From NCBI GenBank assembly GCA_002722735.1, contig PBMR01000015.1, forward strand, positions 33,673 to 97,672: a stretch of DNA of 64,000 nt, read 5' to 3'. This DNA is from Methanobacteriota archaeon (GTDB taxonomy: Archaea; Thermoplasmatota; Poseidoniia; Poseidoniales; Thalassarchaeaceae). The notes below the pieces were generated by a model that saw only the letters and a list, made by a program, of their open reading frames with translations, was not told where the DNA came from and did no database searches. The position numbers and the translations under genes were made by a program. Below are positions 11,301 to 44,374 of this stretch, piece by piece. Position 1 is the first letter of the stretch, and each line of letters opens with the position of its first letter.

Positions 11301-11805
11301 CGATTGCCTGCCTCTCGATATCTACCAACTGGGATGTCACAGCATCGTCGATAATCCCCAATCCTGCAGCGTAAGACGTGGCGAGGTGCAGTCCCACAAT
11401 CGCGGATAGGAAGATGCTTGACTCCTCAAACTGCTTGGACTCAACCAAGAATCCAGTCACCGAACCTACTAGGAAGAATGTGGCGATGAACAAGTTGTCG
11501 AATGTAGAAGGGTCGAGAAAGTTCGCCGCGAATGAGATTGCCAACAGTCCGAATGACAGGGCCGAAACGCGGAGTCCTGAGCTGGAGCTGAGTCGCAGCC
11601 AAGGGGACATCCTTCCGATGCATGCTGAGGCTAGGGCTGCAAAGGGGAGGGTCAGGGAACTGGAAAGGTAGTCATTGTCAATTGTCCGTCCCTCGATTTG
11701 CGAGAGTGCTAGGAAGAGGATGGTCAGCATCGCGGTGATGGCGATTGGCGATGTGAGCTGGGGGGGTCGAGGGCTGTCTTGGGATGCTTCGTTATCGGTT
11801 TCCAT
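2323..11805 (-). CDS. aglB: Giant (about 3160 aa) archaeal oligosaccharyltransferase AglB/STT3 fused to an extra N-terminal polytopic membrane domain and a ~1700-aa C-terminal beta-sandwich repeat region with C-terminal TM anchor
   Basis: Uninterrupted 9.5-kb ORF. STT3 hallmarks are in order: TM1 followed by SDPWYMKRVVDYV...FDHDRAYP (EL1 DPxY/DxD region), a TIGE motif (TIxE-like, EL5), and AFVSWWDYGFQALASGQHPTVADNFQ (the WWDYG catalytic motif plus DNFQ). About 13 TM helices precede the WWDYG domain, and about 8 additional TM helices lie N-terminal to the STT3 core. The C-terminal 1700 aa is T/S/D/G-rich with repeated carboxypeptidase-regulatory-like segments (DEDGNFS..., GEYSFTVPSGKIRV) and many N-x-S/T sequons. 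It ends in a TM helix plus RRTGRRPGAPF. Confidence 0.7.
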   Translation of the reverse strand: METDNEASQDSPRPPQLTSPIAITAMLTILFLALSQIEGRTIDNDYLSSSLTLPFAALASACIGRMSPWLRLSSSSGLRVSALSFGLLAISFAANFLDPSTFDNLFIATFFLVGSVTGFLVESKQFEESSIFLSAIVGLHLATSYAAGLGIIDDAVTSQLVDIERQAIGSAFFAFWFASVALGITVMIALRGTLEEVGSGSMMSVLPTPARSLETPSYAALIFVAHLIPLVWMGQIEDLGAFSESSHLGVVWAMFTTFALLLHSFFRAEGWHVLGALLAINWVLYTLGHLHEIGNEFPSPLDEGGMIGSFSWFFLGFWLNLFGIMAASRGVFGDTSPQREPSGFRIWWKTNSYGIMVSLALVTALVVRAAWNVIPAMNASGTGLWDMTGGSDPWYMKRVVDYVIAERSHLIFDHDRAYPLGGVNPRPPLFSWSLALGGLGLSWLLEIPAEEAVWWSVSALPAIYGALIVIPIAGIATKVHSRTAGILSAWLIALMPGHISRSTFAMADHDSFAMLFLATAIYFWIRALSGLEHKRIFESTSRNPLYLLAGMRESWKQNPKVMANATMSGIAFTLMALGWKGFVYGPGILFLAYSVQVAFNIFRGRDSLQFTAAALQMMMTAILLPLPFYGWPGLNLVFAPSGMQPMFYIIGFTFALGWVASSFRDKPWLLVIITGTTLFGSILAALYLLQTFEIYSGWDILFTGGFYFSKNKIFGTIGEAQAPSRGVLFASYGPVVALIAIGCGFVLLWRGSRRNKSEMTLLGLWVIIATYMAWTAGRFIINATPAMAVVGGIGIAMLWGSANSSEFVKEWRRSGIGTPRARFRSLWPATKARPGIPAILIVLLLVTSQHSTYGIDSGIPRGEESAYDVDLAIYDIAPDILREDFFNIFSVMNGKEYNPDASGLWYMGTFGPSFNSQGWNHAYDWLSEQDSDQGFSERPAFVSWWDYGFQALASGQHPTVADNFQSGIPNSGGMLLSAGQEDTLSMFIATLAQGDKKSNSGQLGDDFIASLSEHMTLGQVGEFESILSNSNRDFVLNRSMGVVAVYDDVELLYGERLGSDGLPQLEKVWMVVEDGVQVSEPTSSQSEAMTLFNVTRASSATVEIGEPVHYDIGGYRYTKDLIEEYYDISTALNRNNARLGMMRAFLITAFDMGTLVDIYHGITSIEYEVSDYDSPLGSTVTRNNEIRYFAVDNRLFPLGGSYYEDQSYHRGQTTGIFHAPTHLSGLDLRTYISTMYQTQRGDDPTGADEMTQAQYEEAYQRDLIDQASGVSSDPSEVIRMTDIDYQHQPEFFETMVARVYVGYGSSTLGLPGDAETPAVWLNPQQTNIKGAPGSPLEYAFALPGAMMNHFVISNWYDDSECELNETGAKISQLCGTIYDSNRVVKVLKYYSGATVEGTVELEGIGPVPNARILIERDAFSGEEEPDENGSVIDGDERTFWIPIGHTQANENGEYSFTVPSGKIRVSAFSGEPDLEAARLSITPSTASNLGDSMYELFTEHNQQRNINPITGILGNVSGSTWLSETIVNVSGSDGHSNGQSRIQAPISVQPSSASGVLVWSGGLDFDGDPVVGSHVVLTPSSDEVAIEPYSTLTSNGTVEGESLEFNGIGQVILTGEGTVVSQGVVTVTDFTGTHTQTIFNNHSITGEGQFTGKGTLSGNLENIEVIACPDDEIPDGAVSCLLENGDYLVNGTVDASGRFTADETSQFSRILDQSTFVGSGEFEADTTQSLPAYGTINGTGLFSGTGIFSGPMVQPGSFHFADSLPGEYDVSIEFDDGTAVGLASSFLIGLNAFQTPVHLSISGGAIKGSLVDQSGEPLFSQISIFPSNDTAENATAECSSQTVAPPCMVIPDDDGSFQIGPIIPGNYLVEVDIDDDGFPEVSEAYQFLPEEDAVATFPSPIPEMSDLYFTLLDGDSPLSDLEVSLRSENGSIAPVMAIYDSDIESYRAELSQGTWILNHTLGEDKQLWQIIEIGQEDVSDSFSFQVSQTVNGTVRFSQDVKQENEIPAQVVGLAEVVFQWGGFTLTTTSDEDGNFSVILPVDAVVYATVEVLMGMDGFLSNGTRFTVEQGMDVVSLSVVSSAMATGTVSLNRLGNHYGDSIKGWESVHVVATNTDGVTNGIWREEVDSNGYFEMILPLGDWTFVLDAGEMGSSTEAREINSSSVWDLELLVYPEGNSTVIIDFFIDHERDNNASNGTAVTYPFSVYSLEANGAGYEVTVDGDEWVSTGRAEVSLEPGRYRIVVERANASADEPFDTLYDLNDVFQVGMDSSTVERSVGFEPLWLVNISFSNESGSLLTNHEVMFVDSDNGWIQTFLTDEEGRVVEYLLEGDWIVIVKEFETSSDVFEGLRRLISVSQVSAGSRLFFQTSELAEVSIVLFEDYSGTSLNQMELKFTSQEGLGSFTEDTSGFLETIKIRPTPGMWNVELNQSDNQGARWVIDNSSLIESGVSVGVEHIVNLTVRRLVEMSGKVYWDLDDDELPGFGEGLANVSVNISSIDNTSHSLTTDDGGNWAIYLPAGSSWNISVEKPGFANESVFVTLGAIGQIENIEITAGSVEVSGTISYISNEWIFDDDWDIVLIPTHGISRERVVPEKVGNEVDGWTGEWVASVEPGRWIVYATVDSPEEGLYLVAVDLLDADTDGGSVDSDLSIGGKLFLDTEWLDYEGESHSLLEIDDYDLVISVGMGVEWSEELDGDGILEMLLPTGRIDASSDFEIEQRSRNMSYSGGQGVTMRAGQDSPLKTLSLERASNQDIEISAIGESAVTLELDPDCEAEPDCEYLPVEFILHINYSGHNPYDTYDVAGTVLGTDGGLWLVQFENASGGWNSTASFEMGLDNTETIDNFVVRVSPANKSQAHHFQLGHTILIKLSTAEGYSIDHSLSVVVPKLSGFDVTEDYVDTVYFSSGEKLLNVEIPYQNLGNSDDLLTFDYQSTEHWNVGMPTMQPISPFSEGITTMSLSYAVEGEEGPLPEYTIEFTVRDSDNNSYDYHITLLRDSPAISIRGNTIQLQGGGNPIAGQKPVYVVEVVNEAHVSAEDVTLRARLCNDIRCESTAGVNSTVVSDVPEQGSSLFYVPMDFSNFTTNKYFIIFEIVPPGFNEGDDLESCSEQVDEVLVCVMEAQLWPEAEEEVLGWITYLLLLMLALALWSLTRRTGRRPGAPF

Positions 11806-11916
11806 CACACCCACCAGACCACGTAGCCAAAGGCTCAGCAGCGCGGCGACCTGAACGCTTGTTTTAACCGTTCGTAGAACGGTTGCGGCAATGAGGGGGC
11901 AGAATGGGTTCGCCCA

Positions 11917-13900: not shown

Positions 13901-14013
13901 CGGGTTGAGCACACCGCTTGGGCGGTTGAACTTTCGCACATCACGAATTGAGGGATATTGCATTGTTTCGCAGACATGCCGCCGTGATGTTCATTTCCCC
14001 CTCGGCCAGCCGA

Positions 14014-15756
14014 ATGACAATGAACGGCAGAAGAACCTTGGTGGTTTGCATGGTACTAATATCGGCTGGGATGGTTCTGCCACCGGGAGCATTGGCCGAG
14101 AGCGGGGAGGACATCATTATCGAATCTGACATGACTTGGGAACAGGACATGACCCTGTCACAGAATGTCAGGGTCATCAACGGTGGATCCCTGACATTCT
14201 CGAACGTCCAAGTAACACTAGAGAATGGAGTGGACATCTTCGTTGACCCAACGTCTTCGATAACGATTGATAACTCAGGATTGGTGGCTGCAGAGCCACC
14301 TAGTGGACTAGTTGGCTATGGCTACTGTGATGAGGGCAATCGTTCAGGCATCAAGGTAGAATGGCCGGACCCCGGACGGCGAATGGAAATTGTACTAACT
14401 ACGATTGAACCATCAAGCCTAGATGGGGTCACAGCATACTTTGGGGATGATTCTGAGTCCCTGAGTGGTGCAAATGACTCTATCGTTTTTGATTTGGGGA
14501 CGGAGGGCGAAATTTGGGTCGATTTGGTTGGGCCACTTTGCTACCCACCTTCTCTGAGTGATGTGAGGGTAAAAAGAGCGAATTCGGAGATTTCAGATTG
14601 TCAAGGTTGTCAATCGGGAAGCGCTGCCGACTTCGGACACAGAAACATGATGGTCCACGGCGATCCCGGGTTCACCATGACTATAGAAGGAGAAATGTGG
14701 TCTAATGGCTCAAGACTGGTTGGCGGGCAGATTGCCAATGCAGGTCGACTTTCGATCAACGATACTTCATTGGACAGGGTCGGCCCAGTCATTCTGACTA
14801 GCGACGATGCGGCGATAACCCTTTCAGGGACCACTCACTTCACCAATAGCACTGACGACCATGATGTCAGAACAAGGGCTTACAGCTCAATTGAATGGGG
14901 CGACAATGTGAGCGGATCCGGTGGTTTGACTGACAAGTGGGAGAGGCGGCTTGCAGGACAGCGTCTCAGTTTCGAAGCCATCTATGTCGCCTACGAAATC
15001 ACGGGCATGCACAACACCCCATCATACAGTAACTTCAGCAACTTGGACGGGGTTTCCTTCGTCAAGGGAGGAGGCGAGAGGGTCGTCGAGATCGCATGGT
15101 CCGATGACAACACATGGGAGGATGGGGCCATTTGGACCGAACAGGCGGTTGTGACCATCACTGACTACAGAACAGCGTGGAATCCCGATGGATCAGGGAT
15201 TGGGGACTACGGAGGAGGTCAATTCCCTCTTGGATGGCAGTCAGATGTCGTAGTCGACCAAGAAACGCCGAACGTAGGGTGGGTGTCCATCACCACAGTG
15301 GGAGATGACGGAAATTCGACCGATACGGCAGTATTGGGGGACTCTGTCGCAGTCGAGGCGGTGATTGCAAACTCTGGCACCGCAGCAGCCATCCTTGCCA
15401 TAGATTGCAATGTCACCAGTACTGGAATCGCTGCGGAGATGTCCCCAACCTGGCCCAATGCGATGATTGGGGCTGGGGGCGAAGAGATCATCCACTTCAC
15501 TTGGAGGAATTCCGTTATCGGCGAGGACAGTCTGACTTGCCGTGCCCTGACCCCTACGCAACTGGTTGACGATCTGGCCTATGGCGGCGGCGAGATGTCT
15601 AGCGGTGCCATCACTTGGGGAGAAGCCGAGGAAGAGGAGAATCTGCCTCACACCCTACCAATCATGCTGGCACTGGTCGTTGGAATCGCGATTGCGGGAT
15701 ACGTGGCCGTCAATAGGATGAACGAGGTCGATGAAGAAGGCCGTTCGCAGGAGTAA
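14014..15756 (+). CDS. Secreted/surface protein with signal peptide and C-terminal TM anchor (hypothetical)
   Basis: MTMNGRRTLVVCMVLISAGMVLPPGALA is signal-peptide-like. The protein is rich in N-x-S/T sequons. The C-terminus has a TM helix (LPIMLALVVGIAIAGYVAV) followed by a short acidic tail. The track start at 13948 is TTG. Confidence 0.5.
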   Translation: MTMNGRRTLVVCMVLISAGMVLPPGALAESGEDIIIESDMTWEQDMTLSQNVRVINGGSLTFSNVQVTLENGVDIFVDPTSSITIDNSGLVAAEPPSGLVGYGYCDEGNRSGIKVEWPDPGRRMEIVLTTIEPSSLDGVTAYFGDDSESLSGANDSIVFDLGTEGEIWVDLVGPLCYPPSLSDVRVKRANSEISDCQGCQSGSAADFGHRNMMVHGDPGFTMTIEGEMWSNGSRLVGGQIANAGRLSINDTSLDRVGPVILTSDDAAITLSGTTHFTNSTDDHDVRTRAYSSIEWGDNVSGSGGLTDKWERRLAGQRLSFEAIYVAYEITGMHNTPSYSNFSNLDGVSFVKGGGERVVEIAWSDDNTWEDGAIWTEQAVVTITDYRTAWNPDGSGIGDYGGGQFPLGWQSDVVVDQETPNVGWVSITTVGDDGNSTDTAVLGDSVAVEAVIANSGTAAAILAIDCNVTSTGIAAEMSPTWPNAMIGAGGEEIIHFTWRNSVIGEDSLTCRALTPTQLVDDLAYGGGEMSSGAITWGEAEEEENLPHTLPIMLALVVGIAIAGYVAVNRMNEVDEEGRSQE

Positions 15757-18559
<2,803 letters not shown>

Positions 18560-18742
18560 CCGAGCACCACGGCCCTTGCAGGGACCCATGTGCCTTGAAT
18601 CGCTCTGTGAGGGATGATATCTGGAGGTTCTAGGTAGGTGCACGTTCTATCGTATTGCAATTGCATTTCAAATGCAATACAATTAAGTGTCTCTGCCCAA
18701 CTCGAGGCTCAGGAGGAGTTCGAAGTGGCCGGCGTCAGTCCC

Positions 18743-19096
18743 ATGGTCTCGCTAAGGATTCCAGAGGATCACCTGATGGAACTGGACAGGCTCGTGGGAT
18801 TCGACGGGATGAGGAATAGATCGGATGTCATCAGGGAGGCTGTTCGCAGGCTTCTGGCATCTCCGCTGCCCGGACAGGGGGGCAGGGTCGAGGTCGATCT
18901 TGGTCCTGATTTGACCATCAGACTCAGCGACTACTGCAATCTCGTTGGTGAGTCAGCAGATGTCGTGCTCCGGCAGTCCGCTCGTGAGTACATTCGCAAG
19001 GAGTTGACCCAAGGGGCAACGGTAGAGGAACTCCTCACGAGACGCAAGGATGAGTTGCGTTCTCGATTTGATGACGATTCGAATGCTCTGAGGTGA
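18743..19096 (+). CDS. Ribbon-helix-helix (CopG/NikR-like) DNA-binding protein
   Basis: MVSLRIPEDHLMELDRLVGFDGMRNRSDVIREAVRRLL is a classic RHH beta-strand/helix pattern. It is divergent from the HD hydrolase gene. Confidence 0.55.
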   Translation: MVSLRIPEDHLMELDRLVGFDGMRNRSDVIREAVRRLLASPLPGQGGRVEVDLGPDLTIRLSDYCNLVGESADVVLRQSAREYIRKELTQGATVEELLTRRKDELRSRFDDDSNALR

Positions 19097-19352: not shown

Positions 19353-22295
19353 ATGCAATGCCGCCAACCGAACTCTGATCATATGAGCAGGGGCATCACA
19401 GACTGGAGTCGATTCGAACGACTGACCCCCTTCAAGGTCACAGAGGTTCTCCTGGTGGCCAGTCAGTTCGACCGCTACCTCCTGGAAGAATCTGGCTATC
19501 TAGCAGAGATCCTGCAAGAGGAGTACTCGGTGCTGAACCTATCCCAGGCACCTAGAATCATCCATAGCCCTGATGCTGATGATGCCCTGAGCCTCATCGC
19601 CATTCGCAACTTCGAGTTGGTAATCACCATGACGAAAGTAGGATCGATGGACGCCTATACCTTTGCCAGGCTGGTTAAGGGGCATCATGTGGACTTGCCA
19701 GTGGTGATGCTGAGCCATAACACAAGGGAGTTGGCCACCCTCAGAACCGGTGATGGAATTGACAGGATTTTTGTTTGGGGAGGTGATAGTAGAATCCTAC
19801 TCGCGATTTGCAAGTTGATCGAGGATGAGAGGAATGTGGAGAACGACGTCAGGGACGGTGATGTTCAGGTAATTCTACTCGTCGAGGACAGCAGGAGGTT
19901 CTACTCAGCCTACCTGCCGCTCCTCTACACTCAACTGGTGCGGCAGACGACGAAGCTCATGGGGGAGGGGGGAAACTTCCATGAGAAGCTACTGAGGTTG
20001 AGGGCCCGGGCAAAGATCCTGCTCGCTTCGGACATGACGGCAGCCAAGGAAATAATTGACAAGTACTCAAGGAACATCATCGGAGTCTTCACCGATGGTA
20101 GATTTCCTAACCAAGGTGGTGAGAGAGACACTGCGGGCCTGGAGTTGATTCGTTATGCCCAGAGCGGTCATAGGTACCTCCCAATACTGCTGCAATCAAA
20201 GAATCTCGAGCTGAAGGAAGCAGTAGAGGAACTAGGTGTTCGTTTCCTCCACAAGGAAGATTCTTCTTTGTACCAGAGAATAGAGGAGTTCATGCTCGAG
20301 GAGATGGGTTTCGGCGATTTCATTTTCAGGATGGCCGATGGGACTGAGATTTGCAGATCATCGAATCTAGAGGAGTTCATTGCCGGGGTGGGGAAGGTAC
20401 CGATTGAGTCCATAGAGTTCCATGCGACGAGAAACGAATTCTCCCATTGGCTCCGTGCGCGAACCGAATTCTCGCTCGCAGCCTCCATCAGGCCGATGAC
20501 CCTGGATGATTTCGAGAGCTCAGAAGATGTGCGGGAGTACATATCTGGATTGATAAAATCCCATATTTCCAATGTCAGGAAGAAAACGATTAGGGATCAC
20601 GAATCTGGTTTAAGCGAGGTTGGTTTCCAGAGAATTGGACGAGGGAGCCTAGGGGGGAAGGGACGGGGCCTCGCGTTCGTCTACACGAAGATGGAGGAGT
20701 TGGGGCTAGGTGATGAGTTTCCAGACGTTGACTTCATTGTCCCAAACTCGGTAGTCATTGCCACGGGGGTCTTCGATGATTTCGTGGCTAGGAACGAACT
20801 GGCTAGATACGCTCATGAGGACAGATCCGATGATGAGGTGAATCGGGCATTCCTGAGTAGTCAATTCGGAGAGGTTGAAATCAATGAGATTAGGGGGGTG
20901 CTGGAGAATTCAGAATGGCCGCTGGCAGTGCGATCATCGAGCTTGCTCGAAGATTCCAGTCACCAACCCTTTGCGGGGGTGTACGCGACACACATGCTCG
21001 CGAATGATCATACTGACCTCGAGGTCAGACTCAAGCGACTGCTTGAAGCTGTTAAGTTGGTATACGCATCGATCTTTCACATGAGTGCCAAGAAATACGT
21101 CACGGCCACTGCCAACACCATTGAGGACGAGAAGATGGCAGTGGTTATTCAGGAGGTCATAGGGAAGGAGGTTTCGGGTCGCTTCTACCCCGAAATCTCC
21201 GGGACGGCAAGGAGCCGCAACCACTATCCAGTCGATCCTCTCAGAATGGAGGACGGACTGGCTGCCGTCTGCATCGGTCTTGGCAGGCAGGTCTCCTCAG
21301 GAGGCAAGTGCCTGAGATTCAGTCCAGGGCAGCCCAAGAGGGTTCACCAGTTCTACAACACCCAGTCGATTATCAATACCTCACAGAGTCGCTTCTTCGC
21401 CATTCCGATGGTTCAGGAATCGGGGCCGGTGCTCGCTGCTGAGGAGGAGAATCTTCTGCATCTGGGTTTATGTTCTGCAGAGGAGGACGGGGAGCTCTCC
21501 CTTGTCGGCTCCACTTACATCACTGCTGACGACCGGATCGTGGACTCGATCAAGGTCGAAGGGGGGCCAAGGCTAGTCACCTTCGCGCCGATCCTCAAGC
21601 ACCAGCGTTTTCCCCTCCCTCGCATTCTGCACCACGTGCTCATGACGTGCGAGAACTTCTTGGGCTCGCCCGTCGAACTGGAATTCGCCCTTACAGTCAA
21701 TCCCGAAGACGGGAGGCGCAAGTTCGCCATCTTACAAGTCAGGCCACTGATGGATGAATCGGTTGACATCGACATTGACTTGAACGAGGTCGACAAGGAC
21801 AAGGCTGTCTGCATCAGCAGCAAGTCACTGGGAAACGGCATCATCGACCATATTGTAGACGTCGTTTACGTGCACCCAAAGCGTATGAACAGGATGAAGA
21901 CGATGGATCTCATACCCATAATCGAAGAGATCGATGCCGGTCTCCGATCGGAGGACCGCCCCTACATTCTGATTGGACCAGGGCGTTGGGGGTCATCTGA
22001 CCCATCGTTGGGCATTCCCGTGCAATGGAACCAGATAATGGGGGCCAGGACCATCGTCGAGGTTCCTATGGATGACATTCGCGTGGAACCGTCCCAGGGC
22101 ACCCACTTCTTCCAGAACATCGTGACCTTCAACATAGGCTACCTGACCATCCTCGAGGGCGATCTGGTCGATTGGGAATGGCTCGATGGCACCGAGGCCT
22201 TGAGGGAGGAGAATGGACTACGTCACGTGAGACTAGGCTCGCCATTGAAGGTAGTCCTGGACAGTAGGGACTCCGAGGCCATTGTAATTAGATGA
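19353..22295 (+). CDS. Signal-transduction protein: two receiver-like (CheY-like) domains fused to a PEP-utilising-enzyme N-terminal ATP-grasp (PPDK_N / PEP synthase-like nucleotide-binding) domain
   Basis: The N-terminal 380 aa has REC-like alternating beta/alpha segments (VILLVEDSRRFYSAYLPLL...; GVFTDGRFP). The middle region matches the PPDK_N fold family (SLGGKGRGLAFVYTKMEELGL..., VRSSSLLEDSSHQPFAGVYATH..., VVIQEVIGKEVSGRFYPEISG). No phosphohistidine swivel-domain motif is seen. Confidence 0.6.
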   Translation: MQCRQPNSDHMSRGITDWSRFERLTPFKVTEVLLVASQFDRYLLEESGYLAEILQEEYSVLNLSQAPRIIHSPDADDALSLIAIRNFELVITMTKVGSMDAYTFARLVKGHHVDLPVVMLSHNTRELATLRTGDGIDRIFVWGGDSRILLAICKLIEDERNVENDVRDGDVQVILLVEDSRRFYSAYLPLLYTQLVRQTTKLMGEGGNFHEKLLRLRARAKILLASDMTAAKEIIDKYSRNIIGVFTDGRFPNQGGERDTAGLELIRYAQSGHRYLPILLQSKNLELKEAVEELGVRFLHKEDSSLYQRIEEFMLEEMGFGDFIFRMADGTEICRSSNLEEFIAGVGKVPIESIEFHATRNEFSHWLRARTEFSLAASIRPMTLDDFESSEDVREYISGLIKSHISNVRKKTIRDHESGLSEVGFQRIGRGSLGGKGRGLAFVYTKMEELGLGDEFPDVDFIVPNSVVIATGVFDDFVARNELARYAHEDRSDDEVNRAFLSSQFGEVEINEIRGVLENSEWPLAVRSSSLLEDSSHQPFAGVYATHMLANDHTDLEVRLKRLLEAVKLVYASIFHMSAKKYVTATANTIEDEKMAVVIQEVIGKEVSGRFYPEISGTARSRNHYPVDPLRMEDGLAAVCIGLGRQVSSGGKCLRFSPGQPKRVHQFYNTQSIINTSQSRFFAIPMVQESGPVLAAEEENLLHLGLCSAEEDGELSLVGSTYITADDRIVDSIKVEGGPRLVTFAPILKHQRFPLPRILHHVLMTCENFLGSPVELEFALTVNPEDGRRKFAILQVRPLMDESVDIDIDLNEVDKDKAVCISSKSLGNGIIDHIVDVVYVHPKRMNRMKTMDLIPIIEEIDAGLRSEDRPYILIGPGRWGSSDPSLGIPVQWNQIMGARTIVEVPMDDIRVEPSQGTHFFQNIVTFNIGYLTILEGDLVDWEWLDGTEALREENGLRHVRLGSPLKVVLDSRDSEAIVIR

Positions 22296-22335: not shown

Positions 22336-24342
22336 ATGTCAGTTGGGAGCGAAGTCGAGGCACGACTATTCTTCGCCCATGAAAAGATTAGGGATTCGCA
22401 GAAAAAGATGGTCTCTGATGGGATAATTGCACTCCAAGAAGGAGTTTCCCTTTTGGCTGCGGCCCCAACGGGAATAGGGAAGACCGCCGCGGCACTCGCA
22501 TCTGCATTTGAAGTCACGAATTTCTACAACGCCAATCCAGAGGTTCCGAAGATCCTATTCATGACAGGGAGGCAATCACAGCACAGAATCGTTGTCGAAA
22601 CTGTGAGGCTAATCAACTCCAATCTCCCATCCGGAAACCCGAGAATCAGACTAGTGGATATAATCGGGAGGGAAGGTATGTGTGATAGCGTAAACAAATC
22701 TACCGGCGAATGCACCTGCGAAGAGGGTATTGTTGAACCTGCTCGGAAAGGTAGGAGAGCAGACTTGGAGGATTTCATCCTAGAAGAACCAAGACATGTT
22801 GACCGGGTGATCAAAGAGGGAGTTGCTAGGGGAATTTGTGCTTGGGCGACAGCGAGATCGGCAGTCAGAAGAGCGGACATTCTTGTCTGCGACTACAACC
22901 ACGTCTTCGTGGAGGAAGTCCGGGAAAATTCGCTTCCCGTGATGAGTGTGGATTTGGATAACGCGATTCTCGTGGTAGACGAAGCCCACAACCTACCAGA
23001 CAGAATCCGACTTGGTTTGGAGAGGATTGTTACGACAGAAGTGTTCAGAAGAGCAAGAATTGACGTTAACGCGCACAAGGAAAACCTTGAGGAGTCGACA
23101 AAGAAGCTTGACTTGCCGGCATCCAAAAGCCATAGTGATGCATTACTCCTGGAGAAGCAGGTCAAGGCATTGGAGGACGACTCCGCATTGAGCACGTGGT
23201 TCTCGGAGAAGACCGCTGAGAATGAAGCATCCAAGGTTGGTGATCTGAGAATAGATACTGGTGAGTTCCTCGGAGTCATTGCGAGAGCGATAGAAGGCAT
23301 CGAGGAAAATGGTCCTGAAGATGGGATTGCCAGAATAAAGAGAATGAACAGTAGGCTGCTTTCGGTTGTGGTTGATGAGGATGATTCTATAGAGGAGGAC
23401 GGGCAAAACGACTGTATCAGGCTGGCAGAGTTTCTGGATATCTGCATCAAGTACAGGGATAGTCCTGCCCTGTCTCTGATTTTCGATAACGTTCTGGAAG
23501 TCCCACGGGTGATTAGTCATCTGCTTGACCCAAGTGTTGTTGGTGGACCGATATTCAAGCAGTGCGCAGGCTCAATTCTAATGTCTGGAACCCTATTTCC
23601 TCCAGTCATGTACTCGGACATCCTAGGGATCCCCGAAGATAAAGCGATGTGCAAAGAGTACTATTCCGGATTCCCCCCTGATAACAGGCCGGTTTTTATT
23701 GCAAGAGACGTGACTAGCAAGTTCACAGAGAGGGAGGGAAGCTACTCCTCCATTCGCGACCACATTAGATCCGTACTGGAGAAGACGGATGGAAACGTAG
23801 CGGTTTTCGCCCCTAGCTATGCGATGTTGGATAGGATTTATGCAGACATTGACTATACGTTCGGTAAGCAGAGGTTTCGTGAGGAGAGGGGGATGAGCAA
23901 GAGATCGGTCGATGGTACGGTAGGAAGGCTGCATGAGTTGAAATCCATGGGGTTTGGAGCGGTATTATTTGGCGTATTGAGTGGTAAGTTCTCAGAGGGT
24001 GTTGACTATGCAGAAAATGTCCTTGATGCTGTGGTTTGCATAGGCCTCCCCCTACCCCCACCAAGTGCTAGGCAGGACGCCTTGCTAGAGTACTACGCTG
24101 GGCGCTTCGGGAGGTCGAAGGCATGGAAATATGCGAGTCTACAACCAGCGGTAAACAGTATCATGCAGGCTTTGGGTAGGCCGATTCGTAAGAGGGAGGA
24201 TAAGGCCATCATAGTACTACTGGAGAAGCGATTGCTTGAGAGGAGAGTCAGAGATTGCTTGCCCAAGTCTATGCACACTCGACAAACCACCAGCCCGTCC
24301 AGGACCTCCAAGCACGTAGAGCGCTTCTTCGAGATGTCATAA
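22336..24342 (+). CDS. xpd: ATP-dependent DNA helicase, XPD/Rad3 (DinG) family, with 4Fe-4S domain
   Basis: Walker A AAAPTGIGKTAAAL; DEAH box VVDEAHNL; four Cys in the FeS insertion (GMCDSV, GECTCEEG, GICAWATA); C-terminal helicase motifs (VLFGVLSGKFSEGVDY, GRPIRK). Confidence 0.8.
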   Translation: MSVGSEVEARLFFAHEKIRDSQKKMVSDGIIALQEGVSLLAAAPTGIGKTAAALASAFEVTNFYNANPEVPKILFMTGRQSQHRIVVETVRLINSNLPSGNPRIRLVDIIGREGMCDSVNKSTGECTCEEGIVEPARKGRRADLEDFILEEPRHVDRVIKEGVARGICAWATARSAVRRADILVCDYNHVFVEEVRENSLPVMSVDLDNAILVVDEAHNLPDRIRLGLERIVTTEVFRRARIDVNAHKENLEESTKKLDLPASKSHSDALLLEKQVKALEDDSALSTWFSEKTAENEASKVGDLRIDTGEFLGVIARAIEGIEENGPEDGIARIKRMNSRLLSVVVDEDDSIEEDGQNDCIRLAEFLDICIKYRDSPALSLIFDNVLEVPRVISHLLDPSVVGGPIFKQCAGSILMSGTLFPPVMYSDILGIPEDKAMCKEYYSGFPPDNRPVFIARDVTSKFTEREGSYSSIRDHIRSVLEKTDGNVAVFAPSYAMLDRIYADIDYTFGKQRFREERGMSKRSVDGTVGRLHELKSMGFGAVLFGVLSGKFSEGVDYAENVLDAVVCIGLPLPPPSARQDALLEYYAGRFGRSKAWKYASLQPAVNSIMQALGRPIRKREDKAIIVLLEKRLLERRVRDCLPKSMHTRQTTSPSRTSKHVERFFEMS

Positions 24343-24368: not shown

Positions 24369-24863
24369 ATGCATCGCTCCATGGTACGGTGGTCGAGAGT
24401 CGAGGTCGAGGTAGATGTCGACGATGAGGAAGGGGGTGTCAGCATGGATTCTCCCGGAACAGGGTTGGATGCGGACGCTCAGCAGATGCATGAGTTATTC
24501 CTTGGGGGACTGCCACACCTCTCCGAAGTTCAAGACCGTCATGCAGAGATCCTGGACGGAGTTTCCAACGCGGTAGACGGGACGAAGACATTCGTTAGGG
24601 CCGCGGTTCCGATGGGGGACTTCCTAGCAGAGTTAGGAGGGGCGTGGTCAGGCTCAGAGGCAGTAGTCCCCCTTCCCTCTTCCCTCCCAGGGGGAGTGGT
24701 CATTGAGACACTCATGGAAGAGGGGGTGCAAGTGGCACGCCTCATCTCGCCAGAGAGATTCGGCGGGATGCTCAGGACCTTCAGACTCCCCTTGGGCAAG
24801 ACCATTGCAGGAGCGACCTGGGAAGATGGTGTCCTGACCATCAGGATGAGTCAGCCTCGCTAA
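24369..24863 (+). CDS. Small heat-shock protein (Hsp20/alpha-crystallin family)
   Basis: C-terminal ATWEDGVLTIRM matches the conserved A-x-x-x-nGVLtv motif of the alpha-crystallin domain. Start moved to the internal ATG after the XPD stop; the track ORF start overlaps xpd. Confidence 0.65.
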   Translation: MHRSMVRWSRVEVEVDVDDEEGGVSMDSPGTGLDADAQQMHELFLGGLPHLSEVQDRHAEILDGVSNAVDGTKTFVRAAVPMGDFLAELGGAWSGSEAVVPLPSSLPGGVVIETLMEEGVQVARLISPERFGGMLRTFRLPLGKTIAGATWEDGVLTIRMSQPR

Positions 24864-27800
24864 GCCTCGGCCTCAATGGCCTTGGTGCTTCTTTGGGGGA
24901 TTTCTTGCAACTCCTCGATTTCCCGTAGAACCGAAGCTAGAGCGATCTTGGCATTCTCCCTATGATCCCCCCCAAGCTCGTGGCTAGAGTACCGCGCCTC
25001 CTCAAAAATCCGGTCGAGCGAGATTAGCGAGGACTCACTGATTGGCAGTGCATTGCGAATCGCGATTTCGAATTCCCTCACGGTCTCGAAATCCCTGCGG
25101 AGGAAGCCACTGCGCATCAGTACGGCGCACAGTTTCTGGTAGCATTCGAAGATTGCCTTCCTGAATTCGTCTCCCGATGCGAGCACGTCGGCAGTGTAAC
25201 TGAAGACGTCGGCGAGTTCCTTGATTGCCGTCTTGCGACGATGAGAAAGCACGACGAAGACCGAGGTAATCAAGACAGCGATGACCAATATAGAGACTAA
25301 GCCAAACACGACCGGGCCGAAGAAGGGGTCAGAGGAGTCCTCCTCATACCCTATTTGGACCCCCTCCCTAGGCAGATAGGCCAGGCTTCGAGCATCGATG
25401 AAATCAGAGTCCGAGTCCAGCATGACACTGAGCCTTCCCCACGAGGAGATGTCCGAGAGCGGAGGAAGGGGGGAGAGTGCCTTGAATTCGTACTCGAAGG
25501 TCCCCTCGGCATCAGTGAGGCGAGACATGGAGAAGTGAGAAGTGGTGCCATTCTGCAGCATAGCGATCATGGAAAGGCCCTCCACGGGTGAACCCGTGTC
25601 CCTAGCAGTGACATTGACAATCCCCCGTATCACCCTCTGACCGGTGGATAGTTCGATGCTGGATAAGGTGAAGTCGACCTCTATCACGACCGTGATTTCG
25701 ATATCCTTGGAGGCACCGTTTAGGAATCTCGACTGATCGGGCCCAATCTTGATGGTCACGATATTCTTGCCTGGGGGCATGAGCTCTTGCGCCTTTGCCT
25801 TCATCTGGAAGTTCATGGTGTTCGGATTGTCCCAGGGCCCCGTCTGGAGGGGGAGGGCGCTCTCACCCCATGAGAGGCTGATGGTAAGGTTCTCGAAGAT
25901 GCTCGAGTCGCCACCGATCTCCCTGACAAAGCCTTGAATGAGGATCGAGTGGGAGATGTTGCCCCTGATTATCTTCGAGGTGATGGGTTGGACCTCGATC
26001 AGCACGTCAGAGAGTGCGAAGACAGTCAGGTTGGCCTCGGTGGGGAGATAGAGGAACTCGCCCCCATATGAGAAGCTAATATTGTGACTCCCTCTTGGGA
26101 TGGCATACCCCAAGCTGTGACTGTAGTTGAACAGGCCACCCAACTCGGTGAAGACAGTCCCAACGACAATCCCGTCAAGAAGGACGGATACTTCTCTGTC
26201 ATCCAATCCCAGCTCGTAACCGGTGTCGCCCTCGTACAAGCGCCCAGAGAAGTTCCATTCGGACCCCCTAGTGGCTGACAATTCTTCGGTTTGGGCGCTG
26301 ATCACGGTGTGGTATGAGATAGTGAGGGTGGCTTCCACGTTGCCCTGCCTGTGGTACCCCTGGGCTGGAGCAATGACAGACAAAGTGTGGTTTCCAATAT
26401 CGAGGGAATCGGGGATTACCCATGGAAATGACCAATGGCCGTTATCACCGGTACTGGTGATGCCAATTAGAATTCCATCAAGGAATATCTCGATTGTGTG
26501 GTTCCCCAGCCAGCCTTCCTCAAGGTTGTCTTTGGCCGTTCCACGGAGGATTATGGTATCGTCCACTGCAGCGAGAGGAGGGTCCACAATGGAGATGAAC
26601 ACGGGGCCAAAGACAGTTATGACGGTGGATGAGTTGGATGACAGGACGAATTCCTCTCCGGCGAATTCGATTTCCACAATCCTATGGCCGAGAGGCATAT
26701 CAGGTGGCACTGGCATATAGACGCTGAACGAACCGTTGCCACCGACTTCCAGTCCAGTCATGAACTGGCCACCAACGGAGACTTCTATGCCCCTATCCGC
26801 CAAACCCCTGCCAACACCGTCTGTCAAGAGTCCTTGTATGAGAACTAGATCGGAACGATCGACTTCACCAGGAGAGGAGGTAATGATGACCTGGGATGTC
26901 TGGGTGACATTGAACCCGATGCTATTTGACGAAGGGAGATAGAACTCAGGGTTGAGTGAGTCCCCCTGCCCCATTGGATCGGCCCAAGTGAAGCCTCCGA
27001 GGAAGACAACACCCACTTGGTGAGACCCGAAGTACATGTCGAGAGGAAGGTCGTATGTTATCATCCAATGCCCATTGGTCGCATTGGAAATCGTAGTGTA
27101 AGTCGGTCCAACATCTGCCCCATCAATCGAGAGGTGGATGACCCCCCCAGCGAGAGTGCCATCCTCCAGCAACGGCTGGCCCCTCTCATCGAGCAGGGTG
27201 CCACTGAAGGTCACAGAATTCCCAACAATGGAGGGGTGGGTCGTTCCTGTAATCCTGAGTTCGCTCGGAACGAGGATGATTACGCGGGTCCAGACCTCGT
27301 CTCCAAGAAGTCCGGTAGTTCCGTTGACTCCAGTGAAGATGGCCGTCACAGTCATGGGACCCGGGTTACGGTCAGAATCAACGAGAAGTTCCGCAGAAGC
27401 ATTTCCATCGGGGTCCGTAATGCCATTCCACACTGGAGCGCCATCTATCTGCATTGTCAGTTGTGCAGACTGAACAGGGTTTCCAGCATTATCAATCAAA
27501 GACAATACGATGTTCACCCGATCCCCTCTGAGCGTCCTGCTGTCAGGATCGAGGTCTGTAGGATCGTCAATTGAGAGCAAGGAGAAACCCCGGCTGTCGA
27601 AGAGTGCTAATTCGGTTGCTGTGGTGTAGTAACTGACCTCGGGCGTGAATAACACGATGATACCGTGCGAACCACGGGGGAACGAGAGGTCCAGCCTGAG
27701 AAGAGCGCTCCAGTTCCCATCTGGTTCGTAGTTGAGTTGAGATACCGTGAAGGTATCTGTCTCGCCATCGATAGAGAATGTCAGAGTGGGATTGAGCAGG

Positions 27801-30800
27801 TTTCCCGTCCTGTCCGTGAGTGCGCTACCATTGCTGGAAACCAAAGATCCCGTGACGTTGAAGAACTCACCTGCAAGAGGATTGTCAATAATCGGATTGA
27901 TGGCCATGATGGCAGGTGATCTGACCGTAATAGTGCTAATCGTCCTGATTGTAGCGTGAAGGTCCTCTGAGCCGTTGAAGAACAAAGAAACGTTCACAAC
28001 ACCCAGAGGATGGTTGTGCGGAATATCGAATTCAAAGGCTATGCTGCCATCCCCTGAAGATAATTCCTGCTCCATCCAAGTGTCGTGGAACTTGGCTGAG
28101 ACGGAGAATCCGGATAATGCTTCGTCATTGTCACTGAACTCGACGAGGCGGGATGTGATGGTGGCCGTATCCCCCCTGTTGACGACGGTGACTAGGAAGG
28201 GGGTCGTGCCGACGAACTGGGGGATTCCCCTCACGAGAATCGAGGCATCACCGGTCCCAGTCAGGTAAAAGGGGGTTGTCCCGTTCAAGACACTCACCAC
28301 GACTGTACGCATTCCCTTGGTCACTCCATCGCCCAGGGTGTCTGTGGGTACGGAGAAGTTGAAGCTACCATTGCTGTCTGTCGTATGGTTCTCGATAAGT
28401 ATCTCTTCTGGTTGGTCGAGGAAGAAGACCTCGAGTCCCACTGGTCCTTCGACGGTCCTGTTCGAATCGATTGAGTCGAGGACTGTTCCTGCGATGGTGA
28501 AGTAATGCAGGGCAGTAACTTCGGTTGGAATACTACTGATCTCAACGAAGCTCGGGACCTGGACTGTTAGGTTGACGTTGCTATGGTTGCCAAGCCAGCG
28601 TCCGGCACTCTCAACACTTAAGTTATCAGAGAGATCATCTGGAGCATGGATTCTGACTTCGTAGAAGCCTGGTGCGATCGAAGAGGGGATTGTGGGGCTA
28701 AACGCAGCCACGCCGCCCGAACCCGTGATGGCAGAATCGAGTATCTGCTGGAGAGGCCCCCCCCAGTCGAAGTAAAGGTCGAGGTCCACGCCTGCAATGG
28801 CCTTTCCCTCATCTTCCACATCTGTGACAGTAGCGTTTACGATTAGATCGTCCCCTGCGACTAGAATGACCGCACTGGGCTCAGTTGTGACCACGAATTC
28901 TGATTGTATCCCCCCAGGGATCTCAGTGCCGTCGGAGATGGCGAAGTAGTGCCCACCAGGAGGGGGGTTGACAGTGAAGTCCAGCTTTATCCTTAATGTG
29001 TAGACCCCCGAAGCGACCCCGCTCGGCATCTCGAAGGATAGGTTGTAGCCGCCGGTCGCGGTATTCACCCACCCAGTGGCCAGAGGGTAGATGTCTGGAG
29101 CGGCAGGAAATCCATCGGGTGCCGGGGGCAGGCTCGAGGGGACCTCGAGTCTCAAGGTTACAGAAGAGTTGTTTCCGGTGACGGTCGAGAAGAGTACCAT
29201 GTCTCTGACGAATCCGGAGACCCGGTTGGTGCTGCCTCTGGGAGTCCAATCCAAGTCAATGGAGGCGCTGACGTTCGCCAAGCCCATAATCCGAATAGTA
29301 TCCTGGACTGAAGTCGGTTGCAACCACGTTGACCCGGAGTAGTTCATGACCCAATCATAGTCCCCGGCCTCCAACTCTCGGTCTGGCGTCCAAGCGACGG
29401 CGAGTCTCGGTGAACTTGGGTCGGTCACGTTCCATACCCCAGTCCCATCGAAATCGAGGTTGTAGCCCCCCTCAAACGAGGCGAAGGAACTCCCCGTGTG
29501 ATCTGTGAGGATGACTTCAACCTCTGCTGAAACCCCGCGCGGCTTGGATACCAAAGTGTAATTGAATTCAACAAAGCTCCTGATTCCGTAATCTGACAAC
29601 TGAACTTGGTCATTGGCGAAAAGACCATCAGCGTCGAACTGAATCCGTATTTCCACTGGCCCTGCAGGAATTGGCACCTCTGCAGCAGAGAAGCTCCAAT
29701 TGACGACGAACTCACCAGATGACAGGGGGTCCCAAGATGTATCGTTCATTTGCCAAGTGTGCAGAGTAGTGTACGGGCCTGAGATATCCAGTCTCCTCAT
29801 TTCCAGAATCAGAGTGCCGTTCAGTGTAGTTGGGTTTACGCCCCTGCTCAGAACGGTGCCGTTGAGGAAGATGGGGTTATCAATTTCGAGGACGGAGTTA
29901 TTGGAGCCCAAGGCCTCGAGTGTGACGGACAGGTTCGGAGATAGAGTGATGTTAAACTGCAGGGAAATGGAACCGGGTCTCGCATGGTAGGATGGAGGTG
30001 TGGCGTTGTTCATATCGTCCTCGTGCCAACCCGAAAAGCTGATTGAGGCATTAATCAGGCCCAGTGGCTCAGATTCAGCGATTGGGACTGAGAACTCATA
30101 GTACCCGCCTCCAGCCACAATTGTGGTGAGATTTACCTCGCCTTCGTTCACGGTAACATAGTTGAGGACTATTTGGAGGTCATCGACCTGGGACGGATCC
30201 AGTTTGGGAATACTGGACCAAGACAATTGCCCAATGATGGTGGTGTTTACCCCAATTCCTAGCATTGGCTGTTCTAGTGGGGGGGGTTCCGAGATCGAAA
30301 GCGCCACATTATCAGTGATGTTGATGAGCCACGGGAACGTGACCCCTTGCGTACCAACATAACCCTGCTCCGTGGTTTGAATCACCAGAGAACCGTAACC
30401 AGGCCGTATGGCTTGTGGGGGCAGGCCACTGAGGTTGAAGTTGCCGTTCTCATCGGTCATGGCAGTTGCAACCAAGTGATTGCTGGCAGCAGAGCGTCCC
30501 GGAATGTCGTCGGCATTGTCGGGGTCTACAAGGTACATGGAAATGGAGAGATTCTCGACAGCAGTCGAGTTGTCTACAAACTGCAAAGTCCCCTCAACCC
30601 AGATAGTCTCGGAGATTGAAATGTTCCTATCTATCGCACTCGGGCCCCAAGTCTCGTTGACAGCCTCAATCAGGGACATCGGTGGGCAGGCCTCGAATGG
30701 AACCCAACCAAGGTCCAAATCGCCCTGGTTCTGATTGGTTTGAAGGTGAACCTCCACCCAGCGGGAGAAGTCCTTGCCGAAGACAGCGAAAGAATCTCCG

Positions 30801-38184: not shown

Positions 38185-38375
38185 GCAGCGCGGATGAACG
38201 ACTTGCATTTTACCGATTGCACGGCTCGCTTGGCATCTGATTAGCATGATAACGATTAATGTTGAGTCTCCATCCGGCAATCCTGATGGACAGGCGACTG
38301 TCGACCATTGACCCCAGGGATACCCTACCTGGTGGCTGTGGCGGAGTATCCAGAGGGAGTCCACGGGAGCGCCGT

Positions 38376-39353
38376 ATGGCTGCTAGAAGAAGGCTCCCGG
38401 ACTGGTTCAGGACCTCCCTTCCGACTGGAGTGGCCCAGATTAGATACAGGGAGACCAAAGCCAATGTACGCGAACATGGACTCTGCACAGTTTGCGAGGA
38501 GGCCATGTGCCCGAACGTCCACGACTGCTGGGGAAGGGGGACGGCTACCTTCATGATTGCTGGAGAGGTCTGTACGAGGGGTTGCAGGTTCTGCGCTGTA
38601 GGAACTGTCAGGACCCCCTCCCCACTAGACGCCAATGAACCTGGAGAACTGGCAGAGGCAATCGCGAGAATGGGATTGAGCTACGCCGTGATCACAGTGG
38701 TCAACCGCGACGATCTGTCGGATGGGGGAGCCGGTCACTATCGAGACTGCATTAACGTCGTCAACGAGAATTCGCCTGATGTCGGGCTGGAACTCCTATG
38801 CTCGGACCTCGATAGCAACATCGAAGCATTGAGCTTCTTGCTGGAGGGGCTACCGCTGCGCGTGTTCGCACACAACGTGGAGTGTGTGCCGCGACTAGAT
38901 GGTGTTGTTCGTGACCCTCGGGCCTCGTTCGAACAATCCCTTGAGATCCTCTCCGAGGCAAAGAGGCTACGCCCGGAGCTCCTAACCAAGACCAGCATCA
39001 TGGTAGGCCTGGGGGAGTCTGACGAGGAAGTCGTCGAGGCGATGAGGGAAATCAGACGGGCAGGGGTTGACATGATTACATTGGGGCAGTACCTGCAACC
39101 CAGCTACAAGCACCTTGCAGTCGACAGGTTTCCTGAACCAACCCAGTTCGCCGATTGGGATCGCATAGCCCGTGAGTTGGGCTTCAGGGCTGTAGCGAGC
39201 GGACCATTGGTGAGATCGAGTTACAGGGCAGGACTGCTCTGGGAGGAGGCCAGTGGAATGGAACCGGTGGTGACGAGGGAATCCACGGGTTCAGCTGTAT
39301 GTCACCCCATAGGAAAAGAGGCCCATGTGAAGGTCCGAAGCCAAATGTCATGA
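38376..39353 (+). CDS. lipA: Lipoyl synthase
   Basis: CTVCEEAMCPNVHDCW (auxiliary cluster) and CTRGCRFCAV (radical-SAM CxxxCxxC). Confidence 0.85.
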   Translation: MAARRRLPDWFRTSLPTGVAQIRYRETKANVREHGLCTVCEEAMCPNVHDCWGRGTATFMIAGEVCTRGCRFCAVGTVRTPSPLDANEPGELAEAIARMGLSYAVITVVNRDDLSDGGAGHYRDCINVVNENSPDVGLELLCSDLDSNIEALSFLLEGLPLRVFAHNVECVPRLDGVVRDPRASFEQSLEILSEAKRLRPELLTKTSIMVGLGESDEEVVEAMREIRRAGVDMITLGQYLQPSYKHLAVDRFPEPTQFADWDRIARELGFRAVASGPLVRSSYRAGLLWEEASGMEPVVTRESTGSAVCHPIGKEAHVKVRSQMS

Positions 39354-39373
39354 GTGTATGGGGTATTCATAGC

Positions 39374-40606: not shown

Positions 40607-40608
40607 AT

Positions 40609-42920: not shown

Positions 42921-42928
42921 GGTCCGCT

Positions 42929-44365: not shown

Positions 44366-44374
44366 GGCGAGCGG

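Follow-up and report, generated by a model that had tools for sequence, protein, structure and literature searches.

A receiver-linked ATP-grasp protein family that neighbours glutamate dehydrogenase genes across phyla

Described relatives and the modules of the protein

Phosphoenolpyruvate (PEP) synthase and PPDK combine a nucleotide-binding ATP-grasp domain with a swivel domain marked by a GGxTSH motif and with a TIM barrel that binds PEP/pyruvate. Rifampicin phosphotransferase (RPH) and the prodigiosin/undecylprodigiosin ligases PigC and RedH (PRK06241-type proteins) have a PPDK_N-type ATP-grasp domain, a large substrate-binding domain and, after the ATP-grasp, a C-terminal module with a conserved histidine, and they do without the PEP/pyruvate TIM barrel. 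Two further described proteins are relevant here, namely PleD, in which a tandem of receivers (REC-REC), the first of them phosphorylated, stands ahead of a GGDEF cyclase output domain, and OrfY of Thermoproteus tenax (PDB 4cso), a stand-alone two-repeat protein labelled 'transcription factor'. We analyzed a gene at positions 19353 to 22295 of a 64,000-nucleotide chromosomal piece from a Marine Group II archaeon (Poseidoniales / Thalassarchaeaceae, Thermoplasmatota), a stretch that we call the window, and found that it encodes elements of these systems in a single polypeptide, whose family has a GdhA-type glutamate dehydrogenase (GDH) gene as its one conserved neighbour across phyla.

With RPH, PigC and RedH the target protein shares the PPDK_N-type ATP-grasp, the lack of a TIM barrel and a C-terminal module with a conserved histidine. 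It differs from RPH and PigC in carrying two receivers and a DUF5752 module at its N-terminus, in having no large substrate-binding domain, in a C-terminal domain that is not detectably of the swivel type, and in its whole-protein score (52 bits against 1300). The protein would work like the RPH/PigC branch placed under receiver control, yet lies outside both the RPH/PigC and the PEP synthase/PPDK families. With the latter it has the ATP-grasp and its catalytic residues in common, but neither the GGxTSH swivel domain nor the TIM barrel, and because these are missing it would be unable to make PEP by the known mechanism. As in PleD, a receiver tandem with one phosphorylatable member precedes an enzymatic output domain, although here it is the second receiver that appears competent, and an ATP-grasp serves as the output. 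The VPxESxxYH...RNxFSxWL motif of OrfY recurs at residues ~320-415, as one copy between receiver and ATP-grasp rather than as a two-repeat protein. GlnE, the adenylyltransferase of glutamine synthetase, and the regulatory proteins of PEP synthase and PPDK offer a conceptual analogy only, as nucleotide-using enzymes that are encoded with a central metabolic enzyme or act on it and switch it post-translationally, and have no sequence or fold relationship to the target. We tentatively propose that the protein is a response-regulator-controlled, ATP-dependent phosphotransferase of the PEP-utilising ATP-grasp lineage, nearest to RPH/PigC, that may act in the GDH node of nitrogen metabolism; we regard this proposal as a serious possibility, short of probable.

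The open reading frame (ORF) and its five predicted modules, in order, are as follows:
19353..22295, + strand: whole ORF, 980 codons plus stop in a single uninterrupted frame (ORF list and translation)
19434..19856, + strand: REC1, predicted pseudo-receiver, residues ~28-168 (AlphaFold secondary structure, Foldseek, hhalign to CheY)
19860..20306, + strand: REC2, predicted canonical receiver, residues ~170-318 (hhalign to CheY, conservation, Pfam Response_reg in homologues)
20310..20597, + strand: DUF5752/OrfY-like module, residues ~320-415, beta-hairpin plus helices (Pfam, PDB profile match)
20625..21758, + strand: PPDK_N-type ATP-grasp, residues ~425-802 (Pfam PPDK_N, NCBIfam, PDB match, residue conservation)
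21759..22292, + strand: C-terminal alpha/beta domain, residues 803-980 (AlphaFold domain-only model, conservation)

The initial annotation gave the protein 980 amino acids, which is correct for the ORF; the product is probably 970 amino acids long, from a start at Met11 (position 19383). We placed the start there because close homologues are all 969-971 amino acids long and a 100%-identical database protein has 970. The nearest homologues are found in metagenome-assembled genomes of 'Candidatus Thalassarchaeum', Poseidoniaceae and Thermoplasmatota.

We modelled the whole protein with AlphaFold from a 41-sequence alignment (mean predicted local distance difference test, pLDDT, of 82) and scored residue conservation across 82 family sequences from at least 15 phyla. 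The N-terminal region was modelled as two (beta-alpha)5 units in succession, the first at about residues 31-165 and the second at about 173-317, and the best PDB match of the whole model in Foldseek was PleD (REC-REC-GGDEF, E 1e-7), with single receiver domains also matched (template modelling (TM) score 0.75-0.79). Pfam Response_reg is sub-threshold in the window protein (E 0.0077) and matches 32 of the 41 aligned homologues, with a best E of 3e-11. When REC2 was aligned to E. coli CheY with hhalign, D248 fell opposite D57 and S282 opposite T87. The corresponding columns are nearly unchanged across the family: E178 is present in 82/82 sequences, position 179 is D in 77 and N in 5, and D248 (codon 20094-20096), S/T282 and K301 are each found in 81/82. 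With this full hallmark set (E178/D179/D248/S282/K301), REC2 looks phosphorylatable. In REC1 the acidic pair is replaced by S37/Q38, and Met93 occupies the position of CheY Asp57 (hhalign), a column that reads M in 32, T in 25 and N in 18 of the 82 sequences and is never Asp. REC1 is best described as a predicted pseudo-receiver that keeps the fold without the acidic pocket; the combination of acidic pocket, Asp, Thr/Ser and Lys is found in REC2 and is absent from REC1.

The DUF5752 module is supported by Pfam (PF19027), which matched 12/12 excised fragments (best E 4.6e-9) and gave E 7e-6 for the window's own fragment (25.9 bits against a cutoff of 23). A profile of this region matched PDB 4cso, the 'OrfY protein, transcription factor', at E 2.6e-5, and FGDF, H357, F363-S364-x-W366 and R370 are conserved within the module. 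The ATP-grasp that follows is matched by Pfam PPDK_N (PF01326) at residues 432-802 with E 2e-29 (103 bits against a cutoff of 27). Its G434-G435-K436, R527-S528-S529, E533-D534, E777, Q795 and R797 vary little or not at all, and the catalytic residues K436, R527, S528, S529, E533, D534, E777 and Q795, found without change in the 82 sequences, are intact. The best NCBIfam models were PigC (52.6 bits against a cutoff of 1300), RedH, PRK06241 PEP-synthase-like and rifamycin phosphotransferase (22.8 bits against 999), with the match limited to residues ~456-625, and a PDB sequence match to Listeria RPH (5hv1/5fbs) covered the VRSS...ED...FAG motif. Taken together, the two receiver folds and the PPDK_N ATP-grasp named in the initial annotation are upheld, as is the phospho-acceptor aspartate context of the second receiver; the likeness to RPH that it had suggested is real for the ATP-grasp and goes no further than that domain.

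These data also bear on whether the protein could be an ordinary PEP synthase or PPDK that has acquired N-terminal receivers, as its PPDK_N domain and the database name 'PEP/pyruvate-binding domain-containing protein' would suggest. We give this reading next to no credence, as it is refuted by the domain content: neither the TIM barrel (PEP-utilizers_C, PF02896) nor the swivel domain (PEP-utilizers, PF00391) has a Pfam match at E<=1 in the target protein, the polypeptide ends 178 residues beyond the ATP-grasp, and the NCBIfam PEP synthase models reach 25-44 bits against cutoffs of 598-1063, over residues 460-625 only. Judged by its domains, the protein is not a PEP synthase or PPDK, because the TIM barrel is absent and no swivel phosphohistidine domain can be recognised, in line with the earlier opinion that it is probably not a bona fide PEP synthase. 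A second reading is that of a non-catalytic sensor of nucleotides or energy charge, in which binding of ATP/AMP is all that the ATP-grasp does and the protein serves as an allosteric regulator or scaffold. This would fit the lack of a canonical acceptor domain, but all the residues that catalysis would need, among them the Mg2+ ligands E777/Q795 and the R527-S528-S529 loop, are kept from phylum to phylum, and pseudo-enzymes usually lose such residues, which makes a sensor highly improbable.

Family spread and genomic neighbourhood

Far from being rare, the architecture belongs to a huge and generically annotated family. Specifically, when 1.84 billion representative proteins (50%-identity clusters) were searched with a profile built from the archaeal alignment, 8525 matched at E<=0.001, and 1904 clusters did so at E<=1e-30. 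Among the best 150 (E<1e-234), most are colinear proteins of ~1000 amino acids over profile positions ~5-972, the remainder being matches that are truncated or shorter. A search with a Bacteroidota profile returned 7998 of 8000 candidates at E<=1e-50. In addition, a scan of one genome per GTDB species for two C-terminal motifs confirmed colinear full-length homologues in at least 598 species. The best 80 of these share 38-44% identity with the window protein across residues ~21-980 (up to 89% when family membership was examined), and the similarity is full-length and colinear, including the GPGRWG and SQG(S/T)HFFQN motifs. They belong to Acidobacteriota, Bacteroidota, Ignavibacteria, Chlorobiota, Fibrobacterota, Eisenbacteria, Krumholzibacteriia, Gemmatimonadota, Zixibacteria, Marinimicrobia, Planctomycetota, Myxococcota, Bdellovibrionota, Desulfobacterota, Pseudomonadota, Actinomycetota, Bacillota and Thermoplasmatota, and the architecture spans at least 15 bacterial phyla in addition to Thermoplasmatota. 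On sequence evidence, the window gene is a clear, ordinary member of a large unnamed family with the order REC-REC-DUF5752-PPDK_N-Cterm.

The architecture itself is already present in databases, where members are called 'PEP/pyruvate-binding domain-containing protein', 'CheY-like chemotaxis protein', 'histidine kinase', 'Response regulator' or 'DUF5752 family protein'. For this family, 'PEP/pyruvate-binding protein', 'histidine kinase' and 'CheY-like chemotaxis protein' are each a misleading label. Long variants (1130-1639 amino acids), inspected for Rosetta-stone fusions, contained no GDH or other informative fused domain. Two of them, P0173 (1557 amino acids) and P0200 (1524 amino acids), have an N-terminal extension of ~550-580 amino acids with no Pfam match, and P0255 (1639 amino acids) has two PPDK_N domains.

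The neighbours of the target that matter for this comparison are:
15757..17202, − strand: GdhA-type (family I, hexameric) glutamate dehydrogenase (Pfam ELFV_dehydrog_N E 4e-52, ELFV_dehydrog E 6e-88)
18638-19096: RHH_1 protein, flanking the target upstream
22336-24342, + strand: XPD/DinG-type helicase (DEAD_2, HBB, Helicase_C_2), starting 41 bp downstream of the target

We called ORFs in 84 loci that carry a family gene and clustered four neighbours per side. The sole recurrent neighbour was a gene of the Glu/Leu/Phe/Val-dehydrogenase family, found in 52 loci; the next commonest unrelated cluster occurred in <=5 loci, and a Pfam census of 110 other neighbours revealed no other recurrent family. 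A tblastn recount with the window GDH raised the number to 58/84 loci with a GDH gene in the fetched flanks, and about 54 of these 58 are GdhA-type (>=55% identity to the window GDH). In 41 loci the GDH lies within 400 bp of the family gene, and 32 of those pairs are co-directional and separated by roughly 20-300 bp. The GDHs that flank bacterial members are of the family-I hexameric GdhA type and are 61-66% identical to that of the window. In three additional loci, whose genes had been called independently and whose Pfam annotation was precomputed, GDH was directly adjacent in 3/3. Several of the 26 GDH-negative loci have incomplete flanks.

Among archaea, Marine Group II relatives have GDH at position -3, in the arrangement seen in the window, where the GDH gene is two genes and 2.2 kb upstream of the target and divergent from it. 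A 45%-identical archaeal homologue has GDH directly downstream on the same strand, and two other archaeal contexts are without GDH. A GdhA-type GDH is the family's one conserved neighbour across phyla, and this linkage points to control of nitrogen metabolism. The initial annotation was right in placing the gene between an RHH regulator and an XPD helicase, and wrong in finding no functional hint in its surroundings, because the conserved cross-phylum neighbour stands two genes upstream. As far as the searchable literature shows, the cross-phylum GDH linkage is new, as is the definition of the His-bearing C-terminal domain described below.

The RHH protein and the helicase are conserved as flanks in close relatives only. 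This matters for the idea that the target forms a defence or DNA-repair module with the downstream helicase, which starts 41 bp away on the same strand and matches the PADLOC model 'typeIV_DinG' at E 2.3e-86. The idea is scarcely credible, as the helicase adjacency is confined to close Marine Group II relatives (4 loci) and found in none of the bacterial loci, the target has no PADLOC match, and the helicase domains are those of an ordinary XPD with no CRISPR type IV context; the lack of a conserved pairing contradicts a defence role. The helicase is probably a generic archaeal XPD, and the PADLOC model, described as 'typeIV_DinG (CAS-IV-A associated)', would thus be non-specific.

We also observed more elaborate gene arrangements. 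Some Bacteroidota and Ignavibacteria genomes (loci L030, L043 and L044; L094, 1-9473; L095, 1-13000) interleave two family paralogues with two to four GDH-family genes, and these family-GDH-family-GDH arrays include a shorter, 415-amino acid GDH type that is ~30% identical to GdhA. An apparent second conserved neighbour cluster in the survey was rejected, as its members are themselves family paralogues. In two independent loci (L095, 8021-8239; L096, 8005-8217) an ORF of 70-72 amino acids with no Pfam match separates the family gene from the 415-amino acid GDH; it could be a third component. Saccharopine-dehydrogenase-like genes occur just upstream of the family gene in an archaeal locus (L004, 3697-7974), which also has AlaDh_PNT_N and an aldehyde dehydrogenase, and in a locus from Fibrobacteraceae (L015, 2841-4175); they may reflect a context of lysine-to-glutamate catabolism.

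The C-terminal domain and the proposed function

The C-terminal domain, modelled alone with AlphaFold, gave a pLDDT of 90.4 and a predicted TM score of 0.89. Its motifs, LIGPGRWG(S/T)xD...LGIPV (875-890), E903 and PSQG(S/T)HFFQN (913-922), are conserved more strongly than any others in the protein. G875, G877, R878, G880, E903, S914, G916, H918 and F919 occur without exception (82/82 sequences), as does the pair (S/T)917-H918 (H918 codon, 22104-22106). In the models H918 lies where a helix begins after a beta-strand, which is the local geometry of the TSH motif, and the loop 915-926 is disordered in the full-length model (pLDDT <50).

We asked whether this domain is a divergent swivel domain and rejected that assignment, as all comparisons were non-significant. 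Pfam gave no match at E<=10 for 15 C-terminal fragments, a sequence-profile search of the PDB gave no match, and the best Foldseek hit in the PDB was an unrelated Cpn60 (E 0.099, TM 0.26). Foldseek is a weak negative for a single domain, because the whole-model search returned receiver-domain matches only and missed the PPDK_N relatives that Pfam detects at E 2e-29. Using hhalign, we compared the domain with swivel profiles of increasing depth (1, 7 and 127 sequences, drawn from E. coli PpsA and PtsI, PDB chains 2ols, 8a8e, 9dae, 2e28 and 5fbs, and 120 database PEP-utilizers proteins) and obtained a Prob of 0.2-1.2%, with 1.1% for the 127-sequence profile. Laid out by eye, the order of secondary structure can be matched to that of a swivel domain with H918 at the TSH position, and the terminal hairpin ('VVLDSRDSEAIVI'; 'LLDGRxGxAxI' in bacteria) resembles the 'V-DG--G-VY' end of swivel domains; hhalign favours another register, with GPGRWGS opposite GGRTCH, which is equally insignificant. 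We do not claim swivel homology, because the tests are non-significant and the register preferred by hhalign differs from that found by eye. A regular-expression search found no GGxTSHAA-type motif in any ORF of the window, which agrees with the initial annotation, as does the negative Pfam result. The further statement that the protein is 'without a phosphohistidine domain' is correct in so far as swivel homology was not found, and too strong as an assertion of absence for a protein with a folded domain and a histidine kept in 82/82 sequences. H918 is a candidate phosphocarrier, a role that is suggested by its invariance and local geometry only, because similarity to the swivel domain is undetectable.

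Based on these observations, the proposed phosphotransferase would work in four steps. First, a histidine kinase encoded elsewhere in the genome would phosphorylate REC2 at Asp248, as the conserved residues suggest, with REC1 as a non-phosphorylatable partner domain in the manner of PleD-type REC-REC tandems. Second, phosphorylation would turn on the PPDK_N ATP-grasp, which has all its nucleotide and Mg2+ ligands intact. Third, the ATP-grasp would phosphorylate (S/T)-His918, with the C-terminal domain acting as the swivelling phosphohistidine carrier, though it is not recognisably homologous to one. Fourth, the phosphoryl group may be passed to a target, for which gene linkage alone suggests either, most probably, GdhA itself, resulting in post-translational control of GDH, or a metabolite of the glutamate/2-oxoglutarate node.

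The identity of the acceptor separates this scheme from a signal-gated small-molecule kinase of RPH/PigC type, acting on a metabolite or xenobiotic, for which GDH adjacency would reflect only shared nitrogen/carbon regulation; a signal-gated kinase is the reading of the initial annotation. The nearest ATP-grasp models, PigC, RedH and RPH, all act on small molecules; the DUF5752/OrfY-like module and the C-terminal domain could together form a ligand site; and the conserved motifs of the C-terminal domain are found in the model along the C-terminal edge of a parallel sheet, where ligands typically bind. Both the large substrate-binding domain and the canonical swivel domain of RPH/PigC are absent here, however, the Pfam census of neighbours showed no biosynthetic or resistance genes in the context, and the tight, often co-directional pairing with GDH and the one-to-one alternation of paralogues in arrays point to something more specific than a loose form of co-regulation. 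We consider such a kinase unlikely.

A different route for the phosphoryl group would be a self-contained phosphorelay from the ATP-grasp to H918 and on to the protein's own Asp248, whose output would be a shift in conformation or an interaction with another protein, such as GDH, and not a phosphorylated substrate. An invariant histidine and a receiver aspartate (81/82) do occur in one polypeptide, no cognate kinase is linked to the gene, and several homologue records bear the name 'histidine kinase'. Moreover, Enzyme I of the phosphotransferase system (PTS) shows that His domains of the PEP-utilising type can phosphorylate proteins. Against this, the 'histidine kinase' names are automatic and are backed by neither a HisKA nor a HATPase_c domain, response regulators often occur as orphans with no kinase gene beside them, and we know of no precedent for an ATP-grasp that phosphorylates a receiver Asp by way of a His. 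This relay is improbable.

A more specific version of the phosphotransferase proposal is that the family consists of two-component-controlled, ATP-dependent modifiers of GDH (kinases or dikinases) with a new type of phosphohistidine carrier, and that it serves as a post-translational GDH switch in FCB-group bacteria, Acidobacteriota, many other phyla and Marine Group II archaea. It might even correspond to a trans-acting gene downstream of gdhA noted in Bacteroides in 1996: Baggio and Morrison reportedly found GdhA to be inactive in E. coli unless a downstream segment of ~3 kb was supplied in trans. This is the size of a family member, but we treat the Bacteroides link as a lead and not as evidence, and we hold this whole version to be on the doubtful side.

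Several observations weigh against a GDH-directed phosphotransferase and its more specific version. GDH linkage is missing in about 30% of the loci with full flanks, and in the window itself GDH and the target are divergent with two other genes between them. The linkage does not distinguish a protein that modifies GDH from one that shares regulation or a pathway with it. No cognate histidine kinase is found nearby, with HATPase_c in 3/110 neighbours of bacterial homologues and in none in the window, and the C-terminal domain has no detectable swivel similarity by Pfam, PDB profile, Foldseek or hhalign (Prob about 1%). No study of the architecture, of DUF5752 or of the biochemistry of any member appeared in PMC open-access or bioRxiv full text. 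Finally, membership of the downstream gene of Bacteroides in the family finds no support in the Bacteroidota-profile search, in which the matches listed include no cultured Bacteroides and comprise only uncultured Bacteroidota and Ignavibacteria.

The surrounding window and the meaning for the family

The remainder of the window has the character of an archaeal chromosome, with genes for CDP-archaeol synthase, aRF1, class-I lysyl-tRNA synthetase (LysRS), the NOG1 GTPase and a 2-oxoacid dehydrogenase operon. Further features that we observed are:
2323-11814, − strand: giant ORF, 3163 amino acids, whose syntenic counterpart has an STT3 oligosaccharyltransferase domain and CarboxypepD_reg
13948-15756, + strand: ORF of 602 amino acids with a TTG start and no Pfam match, adjoining the GDH gene
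17243-18643, − strand: HD plus HD_assoc_2 protein between the GDH and RHH genes, with a weak PADLOC dGTPase match (E 1e-7)
24860-33808, − strand: giant ORF, 2982 amino acids, whose syntenic counterpart has a transglutaminase core and Big_3_5/DUF4129
38259-45049, + strand: complete 2-oxoacid dehydrogenase operon (lipoyl synthase, E1 alpha, E1 beta, E2, E3, lipoate-protein ligase)
60917-62722: aldehyde:ferredoxin oxidoreductase

The position of the HD protein is kept in close relatives only, and the ORF at 13948-15756 has an unannotated counterpart of 577-578 amino acids in syntenic Marine Group II contigs. The two giant ORFs probably encode proteins of the surface or of glycosylation in Marine Group II archaea. 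The 2-oxoacid dehydrogenase operon, the GDH and the aldehyde:ferredoxin oxidoreductase fit an amino-acid-catabolising lifestyle.

GDH stands at the junction of carbon and nitrogen metabolism. To our knowledge, the control of its activity is poorly understood outside a few model organisms, and this includes the abundant, protein-degrading marine archaea of Marine Group II and the Acidobacteriota, Bacteroidota and Ignavibacteria of soil and sediment. The family described here has thousands of members, none of them characterised, and stands next to gdhA in about half of the loci, which were sampled from at least 15 phyla. Overall, it is a concrete candidate for a missing regulatory layer of GDH, and it would extend the PEP-utilising ATP-grasp enzymes to proteins with receiver input and a non-canonical C-terminal His domain.

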